Of a stretch of 64,000 nt of DNA, positions 17,035-39,601 are shown in pieces. The notes beneath the pieces were generated by a model. It had not been told where the DNA came from. It searched no databases and saw nothing but the letters and a program-made list of their open reading frames with translations. The position numbers were made by a program, and so were the translations under genes. Numbering within the stretch: position 1 is the first letter of the stretch; each line of letters opens with the position of its first letter. Location: positions 1 to 64,000 of the IMG/VR virus record IMGVR_UViG_3300005758_000578, one strand, 5' to 3'. The stretch is from a virus.

Positions 17035-17718
17035 ATGGCATCAAGTGTATTAGTAATCGCAGAGAGTGGTGCAGGTAAAAGCACAAGTATTGCAAACCTG
17101 GACCCAAAAGAAACATTTATTATTAATGTAGCAAACAAACCCCTTCCCTTTAAAGGATGGAAGTCTAAGTACAAAGTATGGAGTAAAGAAGATCCTACAG
17201 GTAACATGTACACAAGGCCCATTGCTAAAGAAATTGAAGCATGTCTTAAGTATGTTAGTGAGAAGAGACCAGAAATCAAAAACATTGTAGTAGATGATTT
17301 CCAGTACATCTTTGCATTTGAATACTTTGAGCGTGCTGAAGAGAAAGGCTTTGATAAGTTTACTAGCATTGCCAAAAACATGGCAGCTATTGCTAAACTT
17401 CCCATTGTGTTACGTGATGACTTACATGTATTTTTCTTGACTCACGCTGAAGAATCTCAAGATTTAGAAGGCAGAAGAAAATTTAAAGCAAAAACAATTG
17501 GTAAGTTAGTAGATAACAGTTTAACTTTGGAGGGACTATTCTCTATAGTTTTATTTGGTAAAGTAAAGAAAGATAAGGATGGTAACATCAAGTATGTATT
17601 TGAGACCCAAAACAATGGTGAGAACACATGTAAGTCACCAGCAGGTATGTTTGATTCCTTTGAGATTTCCAATGATTTAGAATTTGTAAAACAAGCAATA
17701 ATTAACTACGAAAATTAA
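17035..17718 (+). CDS. AAA_24 / Sak4-like ATPase
   Basis: AESGAGKSTS, VVDDFQY and CKSPAGMF motifs. Confidence 0.85.
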   Translation: MASSVLVIAESGAGKSTSIANLDPKETFIINVANKPLPFKGWKSKYKVWSKEDPTGNMYTRPIAKEIEACLKYVSEKRPEIKNIVVDDFQYIFAFEYFERAEEKGFDKFTSIAKNMAAIAKLPIVLRDDLHVFFLTHAEESQDLEGRRKFKAKTIGKLVDNSLTLEGLFSIVLFGKVKKDKDGNIKYVFETQNNGENTCKSPAGMFDSFEISNDLEFVKQAIINYEN

Positions 17719-20026: not shown

Positions 20027-20283
20027 AAGAGTCAGATTTAAAAGAAATTAGAAAGGCTTATATATTAGCCAAAGCACTTAATGTGCAGTATCAGTTTATT
20101 AGAGAACTTGTAAATCCAGAGCTTAAAAAAGCTGTAAACGAGGCAAAAGCTAAGAACTCTCATGTTGTATCTATAGTTAATAGATATTTCTCCAAAAGAA
20201 ATGTAGATGGATCATTTGTAGATCAAGAAGAAGAATTAGCATTTCAGTTTTTAGAGGAACTGGAAAAAATTACAAAACTTTAA
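20023..20283 (+). CDS. Hypothetical protein
   Basis: 86-aa ORF with GTG start. Confidence 0.6.
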   Translation: MKESDLKEIRKAYILAKALNVQYQFIRELVNPELKKAVNEAKAKNSHVVSIVNRYFSKRNVDGSFVDQEEELAFQFLEELEKITKL

Positions 20284-20295
20284 AACCAACTTACT

Positions 20296-22547
20296 ATGAG
20301 AAAAGACGAAGAACTGGCATTAGCCGGGAAAGAACTTATGCTTGAACAACCCTTCTATGGTATGTTCTTGATAGGTCTTAACAAAGAATGGAATGACAGA
20401 GTTCCTACTGCTGGTGTAAGCAAACACAACATTAACTATAAGCTTGTAATTAACTCAGAATTCTGGGCAAACTTACCACATGATCACAAGAAAGGCTTAT
20501 TGTGGCATGAGCTTAATTGGGCTCCTTGTACAGTAATGTACATGTAAAATACCTTAAATTGACGGGGACCTCCTTAGAGCTTTATATACTAAACATAGAT
20601 AGTGATATACTATGTGGCTGAATTAATTATTCAGGTATAGTAAAAAATATAAAGATTGGACAATCCGCAGCCAAATTTCTTGTTTTATAATTAAAAAATA
20701 GGTATATTGTAGTGTAAATACTTACACATTATGACTACTAGTAAAATAAAACTCCTAGAAAAAGATATTATTAAACATTATGAAGAAAAACTATCAGCTG
20801 CTAAAATATCAGAAAAATTAAAAATTGATAAAAAAACAGTATATAGAGTTTTAAATAATAATAATATAAAAACTAGGACATTATCTGAAGCAGCATATAA
20901 ATATACATGTGACGATAACTTTTTTGATGTAATTAATACTGAAGAAAAAGCTTATTGGTTAGGTGTGTTATATGCAGATGGTAATATTACTAATCATACA
21001 GTATCCTGTAAAAGAATATTTTTAACTAGCACTGATAAAGAGTGGGTAGAAGATTTTTTAAAAGCAATAAAATCTACTAATACTCCTAAATTAGAAAAAC
21101 ATAATAAATTTAAAGACGCTAACATTTGGAAGGCTGCAATTACTAGTTCAAAAATGCATAGTAATCTTAATAATTTAGGTTGTACTCCTGTAAAATCTAT
21201 GACTATTAGAATGCCTAATATAAAAGATGAATTAGTTCATCATTTTATAAGAGGTTATTTTGATGGTGATGGTACAGTAGGTGTCTATAAGAATAATAAA
21301 AAATTAGATTGGATGGTTTTAAAATCTGGATTTTGTTCAGGTTCTATGACTTTTATAGAAGATCTTTTAAATATTATTCCTGTTAAAAATAAAAAAATAT
21401 ATCATAAAGGTGTTTATCTAACACAATTTTCTTTAACTGATAGTATTAATTTTTATAATTATATGTATAAAAATGCTACTATATATCTTAAAAGAAAACA
21501 TAAAATCTTTAATGATTATATTTTAAATTATAAACCAAGAAAGAGGTTCAACGACTATAATAGGTTGCCCTAATAGGGTAAAGGGATAGTCTGATCTCAT
21601 GCGAAAGTATGAGTTAACATAAATGTTTACATATTGTGTTTGATCACCTTAACCTAAGAGATGAGTTTGCAGATAAGCGGTTATTTAATATAGCTGCAGA
21701 CTGTGAACTTAATCAATACATTACCCCAAGCTGTCTTCCAGAAGGTGCAATCTTACCAAGCTCATTTCCTGACTTAAGACTTGATCTTAAAGCTGGTACC
21801 AGATACTATTATGAAATGCTACAACAGAATCAAGATGATGAAGATGTACAAAAGATGATGGGTGATGGTGATGATATGCATTCTACATGGGAAGAGTTTG
21901 ATGACTTAAGTGAATCTGAAAAGAAACTACTTAAGTCTCAAGCTGAGTATCAACTTAGAGAGGCAGCAGAGGAATGTCTTAAATCTAGAGGTTGTTTACC
22001 TGGAGAGATTTCTGAGATTTATAAAAGAATTACTGAGATTACTCCAAGTAAGTTTAACTGGAAAGCTTATCTAAGAAGATTTGCAGGTAACTCTTATATA
22101 GTTGAGACTAAACTTTCTAGAAAAAAGATTAATAAAAGATACCCGGATGCACCGGGAATGAAATTTAAACCCAAGAAACACATCTTGGTTGCAATAGATA
22201 CATCTGGTAGCGTGAGCAATGATGAGCTTGTAGAGTTCTTCAATGAAATTAAACACATGCATAAAACCGGAACAGAGATTACAGTATTACAGTGTGATAC
22301 ACAAATTACTAGTATTGAAAGTTATAATCCTAAAAAGGATGTACAAGTTAAAGGCCGTGGAGGTACTGAATTTGATCCTGTATTAGAATATTATAACAAG
22401 AATGCTAAGAAGTACACATGTCTTATTTATTTAACAGATGGTGAATGTTATACAACAGTTACACCAAGAGGCAGAATGCTTTGGGTTATCTCTTCTAGAG
22501 CCCGTATTAATGAGCAACTGCCCGGTCCACAAATCCAATTAAACTAA
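20296..22547 (+). CDS. DUF2201 metallopeptidase-vWA protein, spliced (exons 20296-20513 and 21626-22547)
   Basis: Joining the exons restores W-HELLH-IVFDH (HExxH); vWA DTSGS, GRGGT and LTDG motifs. Confidence 0.88.
20514..21625 (+). mobile_element. Group I intron with an ORF in the P6 loop
   Basis: P1 GAGCU/GGCUC with U.G; P AAATTGACGGGG; Q AATCCGCAGCC; R GTTCAACGACTA; S AAGGGATAGTCT; terminal G 21625. Confidence 0.9.
20731..21573 (+). CDS. Intron-encoded LAGLIDADG homing endonuclease
   Basis: AYWLGVLYADG and FIRGYFDGDG motifs; N-terminal HTH. Confidence 0.9.
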   Translation: MTTSKIKLLEKDIIKHYEEKLSAAKISEKLKIDKKTVYRVLNNNNIKTRTLSEAAYKYTCDDNFFDVINTEEKAYWLGVLYADGNITNHTVSCKRIFLTSTDKEWVEDFLKAIKSTNTPKLEKHNKFKDANIWKAAITSSKMHSNLNNLGCTPVKSMTIRMPNIKDELVHHFIRGYFDGDGTVGVYKNNKKLDWMVLKSGFCSGSMTFIEDLLNIIPVKNKKIYHKGVYLTQFSLTDSINFYNYMYKNATIYLKRKHKIFNDYILNYKPRKRFNDYNRLP

Positions 22548-22561
22548 AAAACCCTAAAAAC

Positions 22562-24794
22562 ATGGCACAAGTAAAATTAAACAGCACTGAATTAAAAGAT
22601 TTCATTAAGCACGTAATTAACAACAACAGATTCATTCAGAGTCAAGGTAAAGTACCAACAGCTTTGAATGTAGTAGGTAATGCAGGTCTTGGTAAAACTA
22701 CCGTAGTCTCTAATCTTGCAAAAGAAGAGGGAATGCAGTTTGTAAAGATTAACCTTGCAATGATAGAAGAGTTATCAGATCTAGTAGGTTTTCCAGTTAA
22801 AGAATTCCAGATTGGTAAAGATACCCCTGATGGTCTTAAGACTAAATGGGTAACTGAGATGGAAGCTGAGTTGGCAGTTAAAGCCGGCTTTAAATTGACT
22901 GGTGCAAGACGTACTGCATATTGTGCACCTGAATGGATTTCTGGTAAAGGTGAGTCTGGTATCTTATTGTTAGATGACTATACTAGGGCGGATAAATAAT
23001 TAATCCAAAGTAGCTTTTATTTCTTGAAGCATTTGCGTATCTTTATAATATGATACTCTTAAGCAAAGAAACAATAAAAGAATACTATGGAATATCTGGT
23101 ATATATCATCTTAAAATTAAAAACAGAACTTATATTGGTAGCTCTACTAGTATAGGTCATAGATTAAAACATCATCAGTGGTCATTACAAGAAAATAAAC
23201 ATCATAATAGAACAATGCAAAATCTTTTTAATAAGTATCAAAATATTTACTTCAATGTTTTAGAACAGTGTGAAGCAGATATACTTATAGAAAGAGAGAA
23301 GTTTTATATAGATGATCTTAGACCTTGTATAAACCATATATTAGATCCGGTTTCATTAAAAAGAGATGTAGTCTTTAAAGAAAGATTATCTCAAGCAATG
23401 AAAAAAAGAATAGAAAATGGATGGAGTCCTGTTAATAAAAGAGCTGTACATATGTATAATATGGAAGGCGTCTTTATTAAATCTTTTAATAGCATAACAG
23501 ATGCTGGAAAATATCTAAACATAAAAGATATATCTGGTATTGCTGTAGCATGTAAGGGAAAAAGACTTCATACTTATTATAATTATAGATGGTCATTTGA
23601 TAAAGTAGAACAATTAGGTCCTATACCTAATAACTGGGAAAGCACTGCTGTAGATCAATATGACTTAAATGATAATTATATTAAGACTTTTAATTCTATT
23701 AAAGAAATTGGAATACCTAATATATCCAGGGCTATTAAATATAATAGAACTGCTGGTGGTTATAAATGGAAACATTCTCGTGTCCGCCTTAAATCCTGTG
23801 AATTGCTGGAAACTCCTGAAGAGGACAATCAGCAGCCAAGCTAATTAGAAATAATTAGAAGGTTCAACGACTAGTATATGGAGTCTTACCAAGTGATGTT
23901 GGAGACAGTAAAATACCAAGAGCGCAGGACAGTAACTTATGTATATCAATACTTAAAGGTTACTGATGATATAGTCTGAACTGTATATATAACAAAATAA
24001 AATGCAGAACTATAGGATAAAGAACCTATAGGATAACACTATTGCCGAGAATGATTCAAGCATGTATGGATTTGATTAACACTCAAGAATATATTTCTTG
24101 GAAGTTACCTAAAGACTGGACTATTATTCTAACTACTAATCCAGATGGTGGTGACTATCATGTAAATAGTATGGACGTAGCACAAACTACTCGTTTCATC
24201 TCTTGTGAGTTGAAGTTTGATGTAGATTGTTGGGCACAATGGGCAGAAGAAACAGCTATGGATGGCAGATGTATTAACTTCATCTTGAAGCACCCAGAAG
24301 TTGTTACTGAGTCTACTAACCCACGTGCAATTACTACATTCTTTAATGCTATCTCTAGCTTTGAGAAGTTTGAAGATAACCTACCTATGATCCAAATGAT
24401 TGGTGAAGGTTCTGTTGGTGCAGATATGACTAGCTTGTTTACTTTGTTTATTAATAACAAACTGGACCAGTTGATCTCTCCAAAAGATATCATCTTACAT
24501 GACAATGAGGATTATATTATAGGTGCTTTGAAATCTACAATTGGTAGAGGTGATGATTACCGGGCAGATATTGCTAGTATTATGAGTACTAGGATTATAA
24601 ACTTTGCTCTTAGTCACTTCAAAACAAACCCAATGAAGAATGAAGTAATCAAACGTTTTGAGAAATTAGTAGTGGATGAAATATTTGCTATTGACCTGAA
24701 ATATATGATTGTAAGAAATCTTATCAATGGTAATAAGCAAAAGTTTCAGAAACTTATGTTGAACGATAAAGTTATGGAGTACACAATCCGATGA
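22562..24794 (+). CDS. MoxR-like AAA+ ATPase, spliced (exons 22562-22993 and 24045-24794)
   Basis: GNAGLGKT Walker A; the joined sequence reads LLLDDYTRAD-PRMIQACMDL; sensor TTNP. Confidence 0.88.
22994..24044 (+). mobile_element. Group I intron with an ORF in the P1 loop
   Basis: P AATTGCTGGAAA; Q AATCAGCAGCC; R GTTCAACGACTA; S GATATAGTCT; P3 TCCTGTG/CGCAGGA; IGS GTCCGCCTT at 23782. Confidence 0.9.
23050..23844 (+). CDS. Intron-encoded GIY-YIG homing endonuclease with NUMOD1 repeats
   Basis: SGIY..YIGSS..R..H and EREKFYI motifs. Confidence 0.9.
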   Translation: MILLSKETIKEYYGISGIYHLKIKNRTYIGSSTSIGHRLKHHQWSLQENKHHNRTMQNLFNKYQNIYFNVLEQCEADILIEREKFYIDDLRPCINHILDPVSLKRDVVFKERLSQAMKKRIENGWSPVNKRAVHMYNMEGVFIKSFNSITDAGKYLNIKDISGIAVACKGKRLHTYYNYRWSFDKVEQLGPIPNNWESTAVDQYDLNDNYIKTFNSIKEIGIPNISRAIKYNRTAGGYKWKHSRVRLKSCELLETPEEDNQQPS

Positions 24795-29826: not shown

Positions 29827-30077
29827 TAACTATAGAGAAACAACCGATTCACAAGACAGAAATCTTTATTCACAATGGTACTTACACAACCAAGGATGTA
29901 TGGGAAGATGAGATTGAGCTAACTGCTTATCCCTTCTCATGCACCTTAAGAATAGATCATTTACAACAATCTTTAAGTTCTACAGTAGTTTGGCCACAGT
30001 TAAAACCTGCAGGGGCTGCTGCTTTAGAATTAGAGATTGAGACTAAATTAAAACAGATGTATGTCAACTCTAAATGA
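29823..30077 (+). CDS. Hypothetical protein
   Basis: ATGA-coupled to PolB (MITIEK). Confidence 0.55.
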   Translation: MITIEKQPIHKTEIFIHNGTYTTKDVWEDEIELTAYPFSCTLRIDHLQQSLSSTVVWPQLKPAGAAALELEIETKLKQMYVNSK

Positions 30078-30555
30078 TAAAGAATTATTACAGATACAAG
30101 TGCACAACTTAAAGTTAGCGCTTAAAAGAAAACAAGAACAAATTGATAAATTAAAACACGCACATAGTGCTGAAGTACTAAAGATAAAAAAGGAGTATGG
30201 TATGAAGTTATTAAACTTACGTATCACTATGTCCACTAAAAAAGTACCAGGTGATAACTATGTTCCCATTCTTTGCAGTATTCTACATACTATTACAGGA
30301 GTATCTTCAAAAGATATTTTAAGTAATTCCCGGAAAAGAGAGTTTATAATACCTAGATATGTTATTATTCATATTCTTAGAATGGAGGGTAAGACATTAC
30401 AGTATATTGGAAAACTAATAAATAACCAGCATCATGCTACAATATTACATGCTGTTAGATGTGTAGAAGACTGGATAAACTACCCGGATTATTACAAACC
30501 TGAACTGAATGTTTATAATAAAGCAAAGAAAATGTTTGAAGAATTAAAAAAGTGA
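30061..30555 (+). CDS. Coiled-coil plus DnaA C-terminal (domain IV) HTH protein
   Basis: SRKREFIIPR..TLQYIGK..HHATILHAVRCVE. Confidence 0.75.
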   Translation: MSTLNDKELLQIQVHNLKLALKRKQEQIDKLKHAHSAEVLKIKKEYGMKLLNLRITMSTKKVPGDNYVPILCSILHTITGVSSKDILSNSRKREFIIPRYVIIHILRMEGKTLQYIGKLINNQHHATILHAVRCVEDWINYPDYYKPELNVYNKAKKMFEELKK

Positions 30556-30564
30556 TTATATTTG
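30535..30564 (+). promoter_or_regulatory. Bacteroidota sigma-A promoter (-33 TTTG, -7 TATATTTG)
   Basis: TTTG 30535-38, an 18-nt spacer, then TAnnTTTG 30557-64. Confidence 0.6.
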
Positions 30565-30568
30565 TATG

Positions 30569-30645
30569 GTCTTCTAATTTTTCATAGTAAGCTGCTCACA
30601 AAGTGTATCAGGTTATGCCTGTTTCCTGATACACTAGAGTGGCTT
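30569..30645 (+). ncRNA. Putative antisense small RNA
   Basis: Follows the promoter; its 5' part matches 38068-38091; long hairpin 30589-30645 with G.U pairs that work only on the + strand. Confidence 0.5.
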
Positions 30646-30654
30646 TAATTACAC

Positions 30655-30674
30655 TCCTTGGTAGCTCAGTTGGT
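30655..30674 (+). pseudogene. tRNA 5' fragment
   Basis: TCCTTGG-TA-GCTC-AGTTGGT (acceptor strand plus D-arm start); no anticodon or T arm follows. Confidence 0.5.
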
Positions 30675-30733
30675 CTATCATTAAATGATTAATTTTATTT
30701 GTTAATCATTTTTATTTTTTCTATATTATATAT

Positions 30734-31072
30734 ATGGAAGAAATAAAAAATTGTAAACGTCACGGTCTTACATCTTATGTAAAAAGAAAAGATGGAAGAT
30801 TTAGATGTAAAAAATGTACTGTTGATGCAGTACAAAAAAGAAGAAAGAAATTAAAAGCATTAGCTGTAGAATACAAAAATAATAAGTGTGAAAAATGTGG
30901 TTATGATAAATGTTTTTCTGCCTTACAATTTCACCATATTGACCCAGAAAAAAAAGAATTTGCCATAGGTTATAAAGGTTATACTAAATCTTGGGAAAAT
31001 GTAAAAAAAGAATTAGATAAATGTATACTTTTGTGTGCAAATTGTCATGCAGAATTACATAATTGTAATTAA
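30734..31072 (+). CDS. HNH endonuclease
   Basis: CEKCGY..LQFHH.DP..CILLCANCHAELH. Confidence 0.85.
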   Translation: MEEIKNCKRHGLTSYVKRKDGRFRCKKCTVDAVQKRRKKLKALAVEYKNNKCEKCGYDKCFSALQFHHIDPEKKEFAIGYKGYTKSWENVKKELDKCILLCANCHAELHNCN

Positions 31073-31074
31073 CT

Positions 31075-31266
31075 TTGAAAAAGTTTATTATATATCTTAT
31101 AACTTGGATATCTAGTAATTTGTCCATACCTTTCTGGATGATTGGACATGTACATCTTACTATGAATATCTATGAAGATATATATGAGATTATTGCATCA
31201 ATGGGTATGAATATATTAGTAGCCATTGGATTTTATTTAGATTGGAAAAAACAACAAAACACATGA
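31075..31266 (+). CDS. Small membrane protein
   Basis: Two hydrophobic segments; TTG start. Confidence 0.5.
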   Translation: MKKFIIYLITWISSNLSIPFWMIGHVHLTMNIYEDIYEIIASMGMNILVAIGFYLDWKKQQNT

Positions 31267-31550
31267 ATACATTTACACTTAGAGGAAGAAGAATTCTTCT
31301 TAACAAACCACACAAAGAAACCTTTGGTATTGAATTAACAGAAGCTGCTAAAGCTGAAGTTGATGCAGAAATGATGAAGAAATGGACAGCATTAGAAGTA
31401 TATGCTGTTGGTGCCGAAGTAACTGAAGTAAAAGTAGCGGATAAAGTATATATCCCTAGCTACGTTCTACAAAGCGCTGAGATAGTTGATATGCAAGAAG
31501 AAGGCATTAAGATTATGGTAGGTGAGCAAGACATTGCCATTATTTGGTAA
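31263..31550 (+). CDS. groES: GroES-like co-chaperonin
   Basis: LRGRRILL..GIEL..VYAVG..VKVADKVY..EQDIAIIW. Confidence 0.7.
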   Translation: MNTFTLRGRRILLNKPHKETFGIELTEAAKAEVDAEMMKKWTALEVYAVGAEVTEVKVADKVYIPSYVLQSAEIVDMQEEGIKIMVGEQDIAIIW

Positions 31551-32317: not shown

Positions 32318-32499
32318 GCTTGTTCTCCGTTGCAGCAAGGTACAGCATTTTGTTTACATACAGGACACTGATAGTGACCATGTACAAAAATATATTCTAC
32401 CTTGCTATTACAAAATACGCAATAATCAGAAGTTTTTATGCATGAGAGATTCTTGCACTCCTGATTGTCCGTGGTATTTGCTTCCTGGTTTTTTATCAT
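32314..32499 (-). CDS. Small zinc-ribbon protein
   Basis: CVFC..VHGHYQCPVC..PCC; stop is coupled to the PhoH start; start uncertain. Confidence 0.45.
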   Translation of the reverse strand: MIKNQEANTTDNQECKNLSCIKTSDYCVFCNSKVEYIFVHGHYQCPVCKQNAVPCCNGEQA

Positions 32500-33420: not shown

Positions 33421-33451
33421 AAAAAAAGGCAACCGGTTAAGATTGCCTTTT
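33421..33451 (-). terminator. Intrinsic terminator
   Basis: AAAAGGCAA..TTGCCTTTTTTT on the - strand. Confidence 0.7.
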
Positions 33452-33470
33452 CTATAGAGTTAATTATATC

Positions 33471-36293
33471 TTACCAGAATATAAGAGCCCGGAATAATTC
33501 CTGACCATTATGTCTCATAATATACAAGAACTTCAAACCTTCAGGTGTACTAATAATTTCCATACGGTTTCCAACTAAAGCAGTTGAGTGACCATAAGGA
33601 ATAGTACCCGCATTTTCCATAGTTCTAGTTGTAATATCTAATCTATAAATACGGTTAGTAGATTCTTTGTTTATGTATACATATTTACCACCGTCATAAG
33701 CATACATGGTACCGGTGGTAAATGTTTCAAACTGAGGACTAATGAATGGAGTATAGTCATACTTTTCAGTAGTGATATCATATATATCAAATGCGTTCCA
33801 TCCACTACCTCTAGGTGCTAAAAAGTATTTATCCATACCTGCTCCAAATAACCAGTTAAATTCAATACCTACACCTCTTACAGGAATAGAATAAATTACG
33901 TAGTTAGTAGTTGTAGCCGGAGCAACGTTAGCACTAAATGTAAGTGTGTTACTAGTATTTGATGTAACAGTTTGCTCAATCATAGTACCGGTGGAACTTA
34001 GATACCTAAAACGTTTACCTGACCACTGGTTAGTAATCCAGTTTTTAGTAGTATCTACAAGAGTACTTGTAGAACCACCTGTAGCAAGACCAAATGTATC
34101 CATGATCTCATATCTGGTTGTTGCATCTGGAGTAAATGTTTGAGTGGGATAAGTAATTGTGGTCTCAGTGTTTGAAGTAATTGTAATCTCATTACCCAAA
34201 CCAGTACCCGCAACAATTCTTATTCTGTAACTATTCCATGCTCCTGGAATCCATGCTTTGCTTGTATCAACTAAAGTAGTTGTACTACCAGAAGTAGCAT
34301 AACCGTAAGGTTGCATGTTACTCTGTCTAAATTGTGAATCTCTACCAAGAGCAGCACAATCTTGAATAATATATCTGTTACCTGCAGCAACGTTACCTGT
34401 AGCAGCAATAAGGGTAAGTGTAGTTGCAGTATTAGAGGCAATACGCATCCAAGAAATAGCTCCAGCTGGACCTGCAGATACAGTACCAACTAATTTACCA
34501 GTATGTTCATTTACATCCCAGTTAGCAGTAGGATCAACAATCAAAGAAGTACTTAATGTATTTGCGTTTGCCATGTTAGCTGTAGCTGTAATCGCAATAT
34601 CAAATGTATTTGTAGTTGTTTGATCATTTCCAATAATAGTGTAAACAGTATTCCAAGCTGCTTCAGAACATCCGGTAATTGTTACACTATCTCCAATCTT
34701 AAAGAAATGTGCTGTGTTGGTAGTAATTAATCCAACTGTACCAATTGTAGTAATATTAATAGTACAACCAGTACCAGTACCTCCAGTAGTTGCAGAAGTA
34801 CCAGTAGCATATCCAGATCCTGCACGTCTTAATGATACAGTCAATACAGCACCCGCAGCATTAATAGTTTCTACAGTAACTTTTCCATTAGAACCAGTAG
34901 TACTTAAAGTAAGTACATCACCAATTTTATAACCAGAACCTCCAGCTACAGGAACAGAGTTTACAGCTCTTACACCGTTAGTATTTCTAACACCACTACC
35001 TACAGAAATTGGTAATGATCCATCAATAGTTGCGGAAATACCTGACATAATACCATAATCAAAGATTTCTCCAGTTGCCCATAAATCAGCTTCAATACTA
35101 TACTTTAATGTTGCAGATAAACCTGCACCACTAAACCAAATAGAATCAGTGTTACCATAAACTTCATACTGTGAAGTTGAATCGGGGTTAGTAGTCCATT
35201 TCTTTTCTACCTCAAAGTAATTTGATTTGTTAGCTACAATCCTTCTTCTTTGTCCTATACCTGTACCAGCAGTAATACGAATTTGATAGTTTCTATATCT
35301 ATCAACTTCCATTGAAGCTCCCGTATTTACTAATGTTCTTGATGTACCAGATGTAGCAGTTCCGGATGTAAACATTCCACCCACTTCACCAGTTCTTTCA
35401 ATACTTAAATCAGAACCAGCAGCTGCAGTAAATAAACCGTTAGGAATAGTTTTTACATACCAAACATCAGTTAATACATCATAAAAACTTAAAGCTGCAT
35501 AAGGAGTACCAGATTGTGCAGTAAATGCCCATAATCCACCGGTTAAAATTAAGAATCTTGATTTATCTGTAAAAGGAGCTGGAGGTAATGAACTTAAAGT
35601 TATGTACTGAGAAGAGATAACATAATCTGTTGCAGAAGTAGAACCACCTGCAGTTGGACCACTAATAAATCCCCAGTTATCCCAAGACTCATGCATTTGC
35701 AAGTTGTTATCTTGGAAATACAAAGTAGTATCAGTGTTATATAATACAGTACGTTGTTGTGTAGCATTTGTACCAAATACTACACGTACAGAATAACCAG
35801 CCCACTGATTGGTTTTCCACTTCTTTGTACTATCAGTTATAGTAGTGGTACCACCACCAGTTACGGTACCAAAATCTTCTATAATTTCATCACCTACCGC
35901 AACAATAGTTCCTTTGTAACCGGCATTAGGACCGTATAGAATTCTAAACTCTTTATTTAAAAGAGCAGTACCACCTTTAAGAAAAGGAATTTTTTTCTGT
36001 GCAGGATTTAAAGGATTCTCACCAAGAGTTCTACCACGGTTACCACTATACTTAGAATATCTTAATCCATACGTAGTTACTGGAGTATACAAGTTAGTAG
36101 CTAACTGCATCCAGGTATCAGCTTTTACAGAGTATCTAAATAAAGTAGTGTTAGGTAAATAGTAAATATACTCATCTAATCCATCTTCTGCAGTAGCCCA
36201 GGCACTTAATGCAACACTAGTTACTGGAGCAAACCTACCCCATTCCCAAACCGGTTGATCAACTACTGTTTTTAAATTATTAGTAAATGCCAT
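33471..36293 (-). CDS. Tail/receptor-binding protein with beta-propeller-like blades and ~5 internal repeats
   Basis: T/G/S-rich; repeats of the form G.ATxG.xTLVD...W..N.W....R...GTG; Kelch-like Y..D.W segments. Confidence 0.7.
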   Translation of the reverse strand: MAFTNNLKTVVDQPVWEWGRFAPVTSVALSAWATAEDGLDEYIYYLPNTTLFRYSVKADTWMQLATNLYTPVTTYGLRYSKYSGNRGRTLGENPLNPAQKKIPFLKGGTALLNKEFRILYGPNAGYKGTIVAVGDEIIEDFGTVTGGGTTTITDSTKKWKTNQWAGYSVRVVFGTNATQQRTVLYNTDTTLYFQDNNLQMHESWDNWGFISGPTAGGSTSATDYVISSQYITLSSLPPAPFTDKSRFLILTGGLWAFTAQSGTPYAALSFYDVLTDVWYVKTIPNGLFTAAAGSDLSIERTGEVGGMFTSGTATSGTSRTLVNTGASMEVDRYRNYQIRITAGTGIGQRRRIVANKSNYFEVEKKWTTNPDSTSQYEVYGNTDSIWFSGAGLSATLKYSIEADLWATGEIFDYGIMSGISATIDGSLPISVGSGVRNTNGVRAVNSVPVAGGSGYKIGDVLTLSTTGSNGKVTVETINAAGAVLTVSLRRAGSGYATGTSATTGGTGTGCTINITTIGTVGLITTNTAHFFKIGDSVTITGCSEAAWNTVYTIIGNDQTTTNTFDIAITATANMANANTLSTSLIVDPTANWDVNEHTGKLVGTVSAGPAGAISWMRIASNTATTLTLIAATGNVAAGNRYIIQDCAALGRDSQFRQSNMQPYGYATSGSTTTLVDTSKAWIPGAWNSYRIRIVAGTGLGNEITITSNTETTITYPTQTFTPDATTRYEIMDTFGLATGGSTSTLVDTTKNWITNQWSGKRFRYLSSTGTMIEQTVTSNTSNTLTFSANVAPATTTNYVIYSIPVRGVGIEFNWLFGAGMDKYFLAPRGSGWNAFDIYDITTEKYDYTPFISPQFETFTTGTMYAYDGGKYVYINKESTNRIYRLDITTRTMENAGTIPYGHSTALVGNRMEIISTPEGLKFLYIMRHNGQELFRALIFW

Positions 36294-36576: not shown

Positions 36577-36987
36577 TTATATTATATTCCAGTTTGTTAA
36601 GTGTGGGTACAAATTTAAAGAAGTCTTATTCTTCATCTGTACATTAGGATTAAATTCTATTGTTTGTCCGGAGTGTGGATTTATAATAACCGGATTAGGA
36701 CCTATATTCTTAATGGTATATCCTTGAGGATTAGCAATACTAATAATTGGTAACGTAATTGTAACTGGTCCAGATGTAGAATCCACTAAAATAATACTGT
36801 CAGTGGATGTTACTATATAGTCTCCACTGACAGTTGATTCGGTTGGTCCTTGTAATAAACTTGCAGCAATGTAGCGCAAGTGTACAGCAGCTCTCCTGTA
36901 TTGAATATCTTTAGAGCTAACGTATAACTTTTCAGTCTCGTTAGCCCACATATTTAATTCAGCGGCTATGTTCTGTATTTTTGACAT
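36577..36987 (-). CDS. Tail-fibre-like small protein
   Basis: DYIVTSTDSIILVDSTSGPVTITLP..IKN motif typical of tail proteins. Confidence 0.65.
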   Translation of the reverse strand: MSKIQNIAAELNMWANETEKLYVSSKDIQYRRAAVHLRYIAASLLQGPTESTVSGDYIVTSTDSIILVDSTSGPVTITLPIISIANPQGYTIKNIGPNPVIINPHSGQTIEFNPNVQMKNKTSLNLYPHLTNWNII

Positions 36988-37354: not shown

Positions 37355-37789
37355 TTATTTATACAAATATAATCTAAAATACTCAAAATCAAGATCTCCG
37401 CCTTCTTTCTGATATTTTAAGAATGCCTCATATACAGGACCCATAAACTTTGCTTCTGGTTCTTCTGTAACTACAGTAGTTGTATCTAAACCAGCACTAA
37501 TCATTTTAATAGCATACATCTCATTAACCTGAGCCATCACTTCTACTTTCTTTTCTGCTACTACAACTGCTTCTTTTAACTCTGCTTTTTCCTCTACTTT
37601 AGTCTCTACAAGTTTTTCACTAGTCTTCTGAGCAACCTGGGTTACTTGTGAAGCTACTTGTAAATTCTTTTCAATCTTCTTAAGCATCATATCAATATCA
37701 TCTACAGGAGGTGTTGGAACAGCGCTAACTGGAAATGATATTTTAACAGCAATAACAAATACAATACAAAAGGTAATTAAAATTCTCAT
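37355..37789 (-). CDS. Signal-peptide coiled-coil protein (lysis-cassette accessory?)
   Basis: Hydrophobic N-terminus and coiled coil; ATGA-coupled to the upstream gene. Confidence 0.6.
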   Translation of the reverse strand: MRILITFCIVFVIAVKISFPVSAVPTPPVDDIDMMLKKIEKNLQVASQVTQVAQKTSEKLVETKVEEKAELKEAVVVAEKKVEVMAQVNEMYAIKMISAGLDTTTVVTEEPEAKFMGPVYEAFLKYQKEGGDLDFEYFRLYLYK

Positions 37790-38064
37790 AGCTTTTTAAC
37801 AGTGTTAATGATACGTAATTCTGTAATAGCAGCAGCAAGTGCACTATCAGATTTTTTAAGAGCTGAATTCATTCTGTCAATCTTTAACTCAAGATTATTC
37901 ATCTTTTCATTAGAGATTTTAATCTGGTCCGCATAGCCTGTCTTAACGTCATAATACAGATAGCTAACAGCCACCAGCATACAAAAAGCAACGGCAGCAA
38001 CTGGGTTCTTTTTAAATTGTTCAAACGTGACAGGAAACGCATTAGGTGTTTTTTTAGTACTCAT
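37786..38064 (-). CDS. Single-TM coiled-coil protein (holin- or i-spanin-like)
   Basis: TM PVAAVAFCMLVAVSYLYY plus coiled coil; downstream of the endolysin. Confidence 0.6.
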   Translation of the reverse strand: MSTKKTPNAFPVTFEQFKKNPVAAVAFCMLVAVSYLYYDVKTGYADQIKISNEKMNNLELKIDRMNSALKKSDSALAAAITELRIINTVKKL

Positions 38065-38110
38065 AGTGTCTTCTAATTTTTATAGTAAGCTTATTTAATA
38101 TGTATTTAAT

Positions 38111-38788
38111 TTAAATGCAATAGTCTTCAACTAAGTATATTCTTTTTGCTTTATGTTTTAGTTTTTTACATTCTCTTATTGTAGATGATCCTACTCCTAC
38201 AAATTTTGCAGCATCTTTAGAGTTTAAAAATAAATGAGTCTCTCCAGTAATAGTGTTTGTTAACTTGAGATGTTTTTTACTGTTTGAGACTTTTTGTTTT
38301 AATAGATACTCTGCTGTATGAAGTTTGCCTTGATAATTAGGATTACTAGACCCAGAAGATGCCTTAGATATTTTGCTTAAAGATTCTTGAGAATGTGTTT
38401 TCCCATAAAAAGAATTATTAGATCCGGTAGCTTTTTTGGACATTAGCTCTTTAGTTTCTAAAGAAAATACTTTCTTTTTATACTCTGTAGGTGTTAAGTA
38501 GCAATTTAATCCACTATTTACACTACAAAATAACTCCTGGTAGTATCTTTCTCTTTCTAATAACTTTTCAATACTACAAAGTTCTAGTATTTCTATTTTA
38601 TGAGACTCTGTACCGTATTTAACTAAAGAATTATAAATAGCTCTTTGTTTTTTGACTCTATTTGGAGTTAAGTAGTAACTACAACGTATACGTAAATTGC
38701 TAGCTTCTCCTACATAAATTTTACCTGTAGGAGAAGTTATTTTGTATATACCTGAAGTACTAGGGAATTCCAAAATAGAATTTTGCAT
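38111..38788 (-). CDS. Free-standing GIY-YIG homing endonuclease with NUMOD3 motifs
   Basis: SGIYKITSPTGKIYVGE, ERERYYQ and FYGKTHSQES. Confidence 0.88.
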   Translation of the reverse strand: MQNSILEFPSTSGIYKITSPTGKIYVGEASNLRIRCSYYLTPNRVKKQRAIYNSLVKYGTESHKIEILELCSIEKLLERERYYQELFCSVNSGLNCYLTPTEYKKKVFSLETKELMSKKATGSNNSFYGKTHSQESLSKISKASSGSSNPNYQGKLHTAEYLLKQKVSNSKKHLKLTNTITGETHLFLNSKDAAKFVGVGSSTIRECKKLKHKAKRIYLVEDYCI

Positions 38789-38789
38789 A

Positions 38790-39347
38790 TTATTTTATAT
38801 CTTCTGATTTAATTAAAGTGTAGGTAAAAGAATCTCCTTGTAATTTAGCACCTTTTTCACAGATAGCAAGGAACTTGTCAAAATCCGCAGATTTTTTAAA
38901 TACTTGACAACCATGACTCCAATCGTTTACTTGAGAAGAGTCTAAACCAGCTTTGTGGATATTAATACCAAATACACCGGTTTCGGTCTTATCTTCTTGG
39001 TAGACTCCGTCTTTAGTGTAGTCACGGAATACAGTCAGAGGTGCTTTTTGTTTTAAACACTTATACTTTCCCTGGTGAAGTCCAATTCCGTGAGACCCTG
39101 GATATTGTCCTGGTTTAACACGAGCAGTTCCTCCACCATTATCGGTAGTACAAGGCCAGATATGAAACTTCCACTCTCCTCCTTCTTTGTAACTTAAAGT
39201 CATCCAATCATCAAATGCATTGGTAACTTTTTGTCCTGTAGCACTGTTACGAATACCAATCACATTGATATTAAAGTCTCCATTCTCAAAGTACTTATAA
39301 CCTTTTGCTTTTACAGCAGCTTCAATTTGTTCTCTAGTATAGCTCAT
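38790..39347 (-). CDS. Endolysin (L,D-transpeptidase/YkuD-like catalytic motif)
   Basis: NVIGIRN..FDD and GINIHKAG..WSHGCQV; adjacent to the holin. Confidence 0.75.
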   Translation of the reverse strand: MSYTREQIEAAVKAKGYKYFENGDFNINVIGIRNSATGQKVTNAFDDWMTLSYKEGGEWKFHIWPCTTDNGGGTARVKPGQYPGSHGIGLHQGKYKCLKQKAPLTVFRDYTKDGVYQEDKTETGVFGINIHKAGLDSSQVNDWSHGCQVFKKSADFDKFLAICEKGAKLQGDSFTYTLIKSEDIK

Positions 39348-39349
39348 AA

Positions 39350-39601
39350 TTATGCCTCAGCAGAGTCTCCTTCTTTTTTCTTCATGATCTTCTCTACAGA
39401 AGTCAAACCTAAACAACCAAAAGCAAGTAATGCAACAGCATCTACCAAAGGAGTAGAGGGAGCATAATGTGCTTCAGTAAAAGAGTTAGCGTACAGTGTA
39501 GCGCACAAAGTAATAGTGCAGAGTAATCCACACAAACGTTTCATAGAAACGGAGCCTTTTTCATCTTTAAAAAGACCTCCAATAAAGTTTAAAAATTTCA
39601 T
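39350..39601 (-). CDS. Holin (two TM)
   Basis: G.VSMKR, two TM helices and a charged C-terminus; upstream of the endolysin. Confidence 0.7.
   Translation of the reverse strand: MKFLNFIGGLFKDEKGSVSMKRLCGLLCTITLCATLYANSFTEAHYAPSTPLVDAVALLAFGCLGLTSVEKIMKKKEGDSAEA

Follow-up and report, generated by a model that had tools for sequence, protein, structure and literature searches.

A probable new phage RNA with a conserved 5' seed and its possible antisense pairing with a gene of a putative lysis cassette

The phage genome studied here very probably encodes a real, new and conserved RNA, termed R1, as judged by comparison of related sequences. The best single reading of the complementarity found for its 5' end, which we put forward tentatively and as having a little less than an even chance of being correct, is that R1 would exert antisense control over a gene for a 92-aa protein. 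Transcription of R1, the position of the RNA 3' end, repression of the gene and a role in the timing of lysis are all features that we infer. The window, i.e., the whole stretch of DNA that was analysed, comprises positions 1 to 64,000 of IMG/VR record IMGVR_UViG_3300005758_000578; the whole virus record has a length of 112,048 bp (genome G000).

On its + strand, the window contains a 24-mer at 30569-30593 (site 1) and again at 38068-38091 (site 2), the two copies being identical save for an extra C at 30583 in site 1. This repeat had been the starting point of the initial annotation of the region, and it withstood closer inspection: exactly two copies are present in the entire 112,048-bp record, and none of 100 dinucleotide shuffles of the window yielded a match with three or fewer mismatches. 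The placement of the second copy relative to the 92-aa gene was likewise correct, as the strand of the gene (37786-38064, - strand) makes any + strand RNA starting at 30569 complementary to its leader. The two features concerned are:

38068-38091, - strand: target site (site 2), complement of R1 30569-30593, covering leader positions -4 to -27 of the 92-aa gene
37786-38064, - strand: gene for the 92-aa protein, which has a single N-terminal membrane helix and a coiled coil; the stop of the gene and the start of the one that follows overlap

Within G000, sites 1 and 2 resemble each other more than either resembles its counterpart in the closest genome used for comparison, IMG/VR contig 3300032296_001209 (G001), which is collinear with the window and lacks both of its endonuclease genes. 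A 9-mer shared by the sites, CTTACTATG, was considered as a general start or promoter motif and rejected, as most of its other copies lie inside genes.

The region around site 1 is composed of the following elements:

30061-30555, + strand: 164-aa gene with a DnaA C-terminal helix-turn-helix (Pfam Bac_DnaA_C, 46.6 bits vs. a cut-off of 31.5)
30535-30564, + strand: promoter of the Bacteroidota sigma-A type (TTTG at 30535-30538, 18-nt spacer, TAtaTTTG at 30557-30564)
30569-30588, + strand: single-stranded 5' segment of R1 ('seed'), unpaired in the MFE fold; complementarity to the target extends to 30593
30589-30645, + strand: two-part hairpin of R1 (outer stem of 9 bp, internal loop, inner stem of 11 bp, 12-nt loop)

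The full Bacteroidota promoter that had been claimed for this place is indeed present, its -33 TTTG being contained in the 3' end of the DnaA-like gene, but the pattern alone is no commoner in the window than expected by chance (four occurrences of TTTG-N17-20-TAnnTTTG in 64 kb vs. 2.2 expected). Because the pattern is not enriched, its evidential weight stems from conservation in relatives and not from the match itself: both boxes and their spacing are invariant in all relatives, though the overlapping codons vary, and three or four bases separate TAtaTTTG from the seed across all carriers of R1. In Flavobacterium, the -7 box of sigma-A promoters spans positions -12 to -5 (PMC9723704), and on this basis the +1 of R1 is predicted at 30569, which is the first base of the 24-nt match. 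In silico, R1 is equipped with a promoter of its own and a defined 5' end, as would be expected for a trans-acting sRNA. One of the other matches to the promoter pattern is located upstream of a PhoH-like gene (32385-32414, - strand). As the four full matches in 64 kb are at chance level, most genes of the phage appear to lack a canonical host sigma-A promoter.

With regard to structure, the outer stem of R1 is formed by 30589-30597 with 30637-30645 and the inner stem by 30602-30612 with 30625-30635, amounting to 20 bp in total, and folding of 30566-30725 gave -40.2 kcal/mol (z = -4.3). R1 was found in 12 contigs, namely that of the window, ten others from IMG/VR and one from the bin of a bacterial MAG. 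It is conserved across a family of freshwater phages that have not been cultured. In these carriers the unit consists of promoter, seed and two-part hairpin behind a DnaA-like gene; the latter precedes R1 in every relative and in the window is itself located behind a DNA polymerase gene. Among eight distinct sequences, stemming from lineages with differing hairpin arms, the 20-nt seed, which begins with GTCTTCT, hardly varies, whereas divergence is seen in the hairpin arms and in the adjacent DnaA-like gene (third-codon identity 0.56); the 12-nt hairpin loop holds an invariant CCTGTTT. Folds and alignment thus agree in presenting the conserved, unpaired seed that is expected of a trans-acting sRNA. 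In the same eight sequences 92% of the R1 pair cells are paired as compared to 32-46% in slid-partner controls, and five pairs of the hairpin are altered on both sides, a number reached by one in 500 shuffles; the underlying alignment was model-fitted and leans towards structure, which renders these pair counts somewhat generous. Every wobble pair is G.U in the + sense and, therefore, the structure belongs to a + strand RNA. A long hairpin with G.U pairs fitting the + strand only, as described at the outset, is in this way corroborated by fold, covariation and wobble asymmetry.

No match to the Rfam 15 covariance models, including those for C4 antisense RNA, introns and riboswitches, was obtained for 30535-30660 at gathering score or E <=10, and GenBank phages contained no cultured relative with R1, the HNH gene described below being the only part with DNA relatives there. 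The extra copy in the bacterial bin resides together with flanking phage genes on a 12.6-kb contig (L261, RFPL01000031.1) assigned to a Sphingomonadaceae MAG, a placement that probably results from misbinning and does not point to the host.

Downstream of the hairpin, the window differs from its relatives in several respects. The relevant features are:

30655-30674, + strand: remnant of a tRNA-Asn(GTT), first 20 nt, cut off in the D-loop; intact in G001 at the same place
30675-31074, + strand: HNH homing-endonuclease cassette of 400 bp (ORF 30734-31072; PHROG HNH, E = 6e-28)
31156-31266, + strand: lineage-specific spacer with a 34-codon ORF (31162-31266), whose start falls within a partial third copy of the seed complement
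31263-31550, + strand: conserved 96-aa gene, located after R1 in all relatives; no Pfam or PHROG family

G001 carries the same promoter, seed and hairpin, followed after about a dozen bases by the intact tRNA-Asn(GTT). In the window, the HNH cassette has replaced the 3' 55 nt of this tRNA, leaving the genome without an intact copy, and ARAGORN accordingly detected no tRNA, whether in the window or genome-wide. An intact tRNA directly 3' of R1 is a feature of G001, reduced to 20 nt in the window and absent from the other lineages, and because most relatives carry R1 without any tRNA, it must be regarded as an add-on. The bounds of the HNH cassette, which includes an A/T hairpin with a T-run (30683-30725), are deduced from one metagenome contig that joins 30674 directly to 31075; about 58 letters of this contig are unplaced and could correspond to an intact tRNA if it stems from a variant without the cassette. 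The HNH gene is absent from G001 and has DNA relatives in Lak, DAC15 and other phages. Judged by these sequence comparisons, the tRNA of G001 and the HNH cassette of the window are later insertions behind R1. The spacer 31075-31262 is absent from G001 as well. The third, partial seed-complement copy at the start of the 34-codon ORF forms a duplex of -19.3 kcal/mol; the candidate ORF has a hydrophobic core and overlaps, by its stop, with the start of the 96-aa gene.

In most relatives the 96-aa gene starts 16-40 nt after the R1 hairpin, and since no promoter intervenes, R1 constitutes the head of the transcript of this gene. As a U-tract follows the hairpin in only two lineages (L087, L092), the existence of a discrete sRNA cannot be taken for granted; just three T come after the hairpin in the window, where it does not qualify as an intrinsic terminator, and a consensus terminator scan of the window found no terminator on the + strand. 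A free-standing sRNA could possibly be derived from R1 via termination or via cutting by RNase P or RNase III. Of the sRNA driven by host RNA polymerase that was originally envisaged, the start near 30569 is thus backed in silico, whereas in relatives the RNA appears as the leader of the tRNA-Asn and/or 96-aa gene and not as a clearly free-standing molecule. A search of sequencing runs listed no RNA run that contains the locus; three aquatic runs labelled RNA-Seq, represented by contigs only, are probably of DNA.

These observations lead to the question whether R1 acts in cis only, that is, as a 5' UTR of the tRNA-Asn/96-aa transcript which serves as stabilising 5' hairpin, as RNase III/RNase P processing signal or as attenuator, with the match to the 92-aa gene being inconsequential and the seed conserved for another partner, be it a protein or the start of a DUF2201/vWA gene. 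Such a role would agree with the short distance between hairpin and 96-aa gene in most relatives, where no other promoter is present, with the tRNA within about a dozen bases of the hairpin in G001 and with the occurrence of R1 where the 92-aa gene is absent, but it leaves a 24-nt match that is found nowhere else in the genome unexplained. We regard a purely cis-acting leader as distinctly improbable; it also overlaps with the favoured explanation, because a leader RNA can still act in trans.

Further evidence was obtained from a target scan, in which the 5' segment of each of five whole genomes was compared with every gene start of the same genome. Such a comparison with all phage 5' regions had been named as a check in the initial annotation, and it returned the 92-aa leader as the top predicted target of the seed in both genomes that have this gene, with -28.7 kcal/mol in G000 (best of 158 gene starts) and -28.3 kcal/mol in G001; the runner-up reached -20.9 kcal/mol. 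Not one of 150 shuffled seeds attained the observed duplex energy on any gene start. After unfolding, the net cofold gain amounts to about -21 kcal/mol, the target leader being A-rich and almost unstructured, and one C.A mismatch or bulge is retained in the duplexes of both genomes. A second candidate emerged from the same scan:

20281-20316, + strand: start of the DUF2201/vWA gene, weak second candidate target; counterpart in G001 at 17047-17090

Here, the seed could form 14 pairs across the AUG and five more downstream. This gene start ranks first to third among the gene starts in all five genomes, which is in line with a leader whose seed is conserved for this partner, but the pairing energy stands out in G000 and G001 alone (p about 0.01-0.06), with no significance in G008, and the covariation is mixed, changes being compensatory in one lineage and not in another. 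The DUF2201/vWA gene encodes 379 aa in G001, G008, G009 and G010. In the window (20296-22544) it is split between 20514 and 21618, inside its HExxH motif, by an insertion of about 1.1 kb; a separate Rfam group I intron is located at 23742-23995.

The 92-aa gene heads a run of small membrane proteins, four such proteins being present in the putative cassette, and is accompanied by the following genes:

38111-38788, - strand: GIY-YIG/NUMOD homing endonuclease (Pfam GIY-YIG, NUMOD3 and NUMOD1; PHROG homing endonuclease)
38790-39347, - strand: putative endolysin of 185 aa (phrog_3000, E = 8e-28; tentative)
39350-39601, - strand: two-helix holin-like gene of 83 aa, judged by its translation, upstream of the 92-aa gene

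By its shape the 92-aa protein resembles a spanin, and its identity as a holin or spanin is presumed from its predicted features; searches of Pfam, PHROG and Atlas did not assign it to a named family. More than 300 homologues are encoded on other aquatic, mostly freshwater phage contigs, close ones (P0004, P0006) on contigs of 21-32 kb; homologues P0002-P0011 are 92-99% identical to the 92-aa protein. Members of the family usually follow, with an ATGA overlap, a small membrane protein ending in ...YYYKKIKE (loci L005-L082 and L126-L205). In about 60 loci of other phages with the 92-aa gene, neither R1 nor the leader discussed here is present. For the 185-aa putative endolysin only weak leads pointing to endolysins, YkuD and Tlde1 were found, no solved relative was detected, Atlas provided unnamed viral clusters only, and the structure model was unusable with a mean pLDDT of 39. 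"Lysis cassette" therefore is a reasonable label for this set of predicted genes, not a proven one. The GIY-YIG gene is inserted between the putative endolysin and the 92-aa gene and is absent in G001, in which site 2 nearly fills the 26-nt gap between endolysin stop and 92-aa start.

In the window, both sites lie close to endonuclease genes, the HNH gene 81 bp downstream of site 1 and the end of the GIY-YIG gene 19 bp from site 2, and the first description of the repeat had itself named a duplication left by endonuclease insertion as the finding that would overturn it. Copies generated in this way should depend on the presence of the endonucleases. This is contradicted by G001, which is free of both endonucleases and has both sites in the same places, and in the metagenome contig that lacks the HNH cassette the connection to the R1 region persists. 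Since an endonuclease-free genome keeps both copies, we consider this origin of the repeat extremely improbable. Only slightly more credit can be given to the idea that the two 24-mers are binding sites for one protein, e.g., the DnaA-like protein or a homing endonuclease. It would fit the fact that there are just two copies, each intergenic and, in the window, each near an endonuclease gene, and the location of a gene with a DnaA-type helix-turn-helix directly upstream of R1. Against it stand, as read by eye, weak dyad symmetry and the lack of a sequence resembling a DnaA box; moreover, the endonucleases belong to different families and are both absent from G001, which keeps both sites, and relatives conserve site 1 without a second copy. 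A shared protein-binding site is therefore deemed very unlikely.

Comparison of the window with G001 showed that every difference at the two sites preserves the pairing between R1 and leader. One double change, A-U to G-C, affects the same position in both sites, one change from G-C to G.U keeps the pair, and insertion of a T turns the C.A mismatch into a bulged C. The two genomes are well diverged: the 92-aa gene shows a third-codon identity of 0.76, the endolysin and DnaA-like genes one of 0.54-0.56. Co-conservation of both sites, another point on which the initial proposal had been made to depend, was in this way observed, including one compensatory double change, albeit for n=2 genomes. 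Because the target site occurs in two genomes and has one origin, the covariation represents a single event, for which we estimate a chance probability of roughly 0.05-0.1. Additional genomes with both sites were sought among viral contigs (by pattern and with three proteins), metagenome contigs and genome contigs, and no further member of the clade was retrieved.

The most serious competitor of antisense control is a recombination or templated-repair patch. In this case R1 would be real, and site 2 would be a functionless by-product of the joining of lysis modules, break repair, initiated at a microhomology, having copied a short stretch of the R1 region. Site 2 begins right after the endolysin stop, exactly at the junction where G008, G009 and G010 continue with a different gene, and it is known from one lineage only. 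In donor-type phages the 12 bases TTACTATAAAAA, i.e., the first 12 of the site, form the coding end of the upstream gene; because this stretch offers microhomology with the R1 complement, a copied patch has to be taken seriously. Homing endonucleases, which produce double-strand breaks, are furthermore active in this genome family. On the other hand, no additional R1 flank is found on either side of site 2, and one of its ends coincides with the predicted 5' end of the RNA, for which a copy of DNA offers no explanation. The site also survived a split that left 24% silent-site divergence in the adjacent gene, with pairing-neutral changes and one matched double change, and in its orientation and position it covers the initiation region. 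Taken together, we judge a patch without function to be unlikely, though a good deal less so than the alternatives considered above.

On the reading that we favour, that of antisense control, R1 (30569 to about 30648) would be transcribed by the sigma-A RNA polymerase of the host. In relatives it would form the head of a transcript bearing tRNA-Asn and/or the 96-aa gene. Release of R1 from this transcript might occur through termination at the hairpin or through RNase P cleavage at the tRNA. Its 5' end would then, in G000 and G001, form a 24-nt duplex with the 92-aa leader. Initiation in Bacteroidota depends on mRNA structure and upstream bases (PMC6847099), and pairing would be expected to block initiation because ribosomes that do not use a Shine-Dalgarno sequence need an open, A-rich leader. 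Cleavage may perhaps be triggered as well, and the membrane protein would be held back as long as R1 is in excess. In contrast, the assumption that R1 is a dedicated regulator of the 92-aa gene was not borne out. Five other R1-bearing genomes, among them G008, G009 and G010 and with two of the five judged complete, were searched as a whole and contain neither a second copy of the 24-mer nor the 92-aa gene; R1 is older than this association, and because it occurs in genomes without the gene, its conserved role must be something else or older.

A broader reading, which we regard as rather speculative and more probably wrong than right, sees in R1 a new class of riboregulator in hosts without Shine-Dalgarno sites and Hfq. 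The leader RNA of replication-module genes would double as a trans-acting antisense RNA and set a threshold for translation of a late lysis protein; one or more older targets, possibly the DUF2201/vWA gene start, would exist in the wider family; and the phage would couple its middle and late programmes by RNA pairing alone.

To our knowledge, no regulatory small RNA has been characterised in a phage of Bacteroidota. Non-coding RNAs have been seen in the crAss-like phage phi14:2, where their function is still not known (10.1101/2020.03.07.982082). The sRNA GibS of Bacteroides thetaiotaomicron has a long conserved single-stranded 5' seed that acts on translation initiation regions without Hfq (PMC7366714). 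With GibS and other trans-encoded sRNAs of Bacteroidota, R1 has in common a TAnnTTTG sigma-A promoter, an AT-rich RNA, a seed at the 5' end and extended pairing, in the case of R1 a predicted one, with an initiation region (PMC7366714), as well as the setting of a host phylum without Hfq or ProQ. It differs from sRNAs of the GibS type in being encoded by a phage, in having no relation to them by sequence or Rfam, in being much shorter, in heading a tRNA/mRNA transcript and in its predicted target, which is a phage gene.

Among phage systems, the C4 antisense RNA of phages P1 and P7, which constitutes an Rfam family, and the CI RNA of P4 are small RNAs that pair with a ribosome-loading region. 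The C4 precursor is cut by RNase P, and both RNAs regulate immunity genes of temperate phages, in each case on the transcript to which they belong. R1 would likewise be a phage RNA acting at a distance, and in G001 it is located directly upstream of a tRNA, i.e., an RNase P substrate; however, it has no Rfam match, and its putative target mRNA is derived from the opposite strand 7.5 kb away and belongs to the lysis cassette. RNAs derived from tRNA transcripts include 3'ETS-leuZ of E. coli and the stable RNAs C and D in the tRNA cluster of phage T4. In these cases, too, a non-tRNA piece of a tRNA precursor persists and may have a function of its own. R1 is a 5' leader and not a 3' spacer, and most relatives have it without a tRNA. 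Finally, type I toxin-antitoxin pairs such as TisB/IstR-1 (PMC2887945) resemble the proposed pair in that an RNA pairing with the leader would block translation of a small membrane protein, whereas the 92-aa protein is a common member of lysis cassettes with a coiled coil, and the RNA is encoded 7.5 kb off and predates its target. Trans-acting antisense RNA as such is a known mechanism; what is new about R1 is the family, its occurrence in phages of this host phylum and the predicted target.

R1 thus provides a compact candidate with covariation support, a precisely predicted 5' end and a single outstanding predicted target. Should antisense control prove true, it would represent control of a lysis gene where initiation needs an open, A-rich leader, and would offer a natural, portable repressor-target pair for Bacteroidota. 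Should it fail, the locus would still offer a clear case of a conserved phage RNA that is new, and of a tRNA gene that a homing endonuclease has destroyed.

Some further aspects of the region deserve mention. A replication origin was considered as well, but the peak of the cumulative GC skew at about 31-32 kb gives no support to this idea because it coincides with a switch of the coding strand where genes converge. In the lysis region, the GIY-YIG gene starts 1 nt after the endolysin stop (region 38092-38792), and behind its own stop the final ~15 bases of the endolysin gene recur in decayed form. This arrangement suggests that the insertion brought along a new 3' end of the endolysin gene and that the old end survives, as a relic, immediately upstream of site 2. 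A leader with three to four tandem ACTATAA heptads after TTTACTG precedes the endolysin gene in relatives (G001 33430-33470, locus L208; G008 36595-36640; G010 34010-34050), where the gap in the window measures only 2 nt; this heptad leader has TTTACTATAAA in common with site 2.
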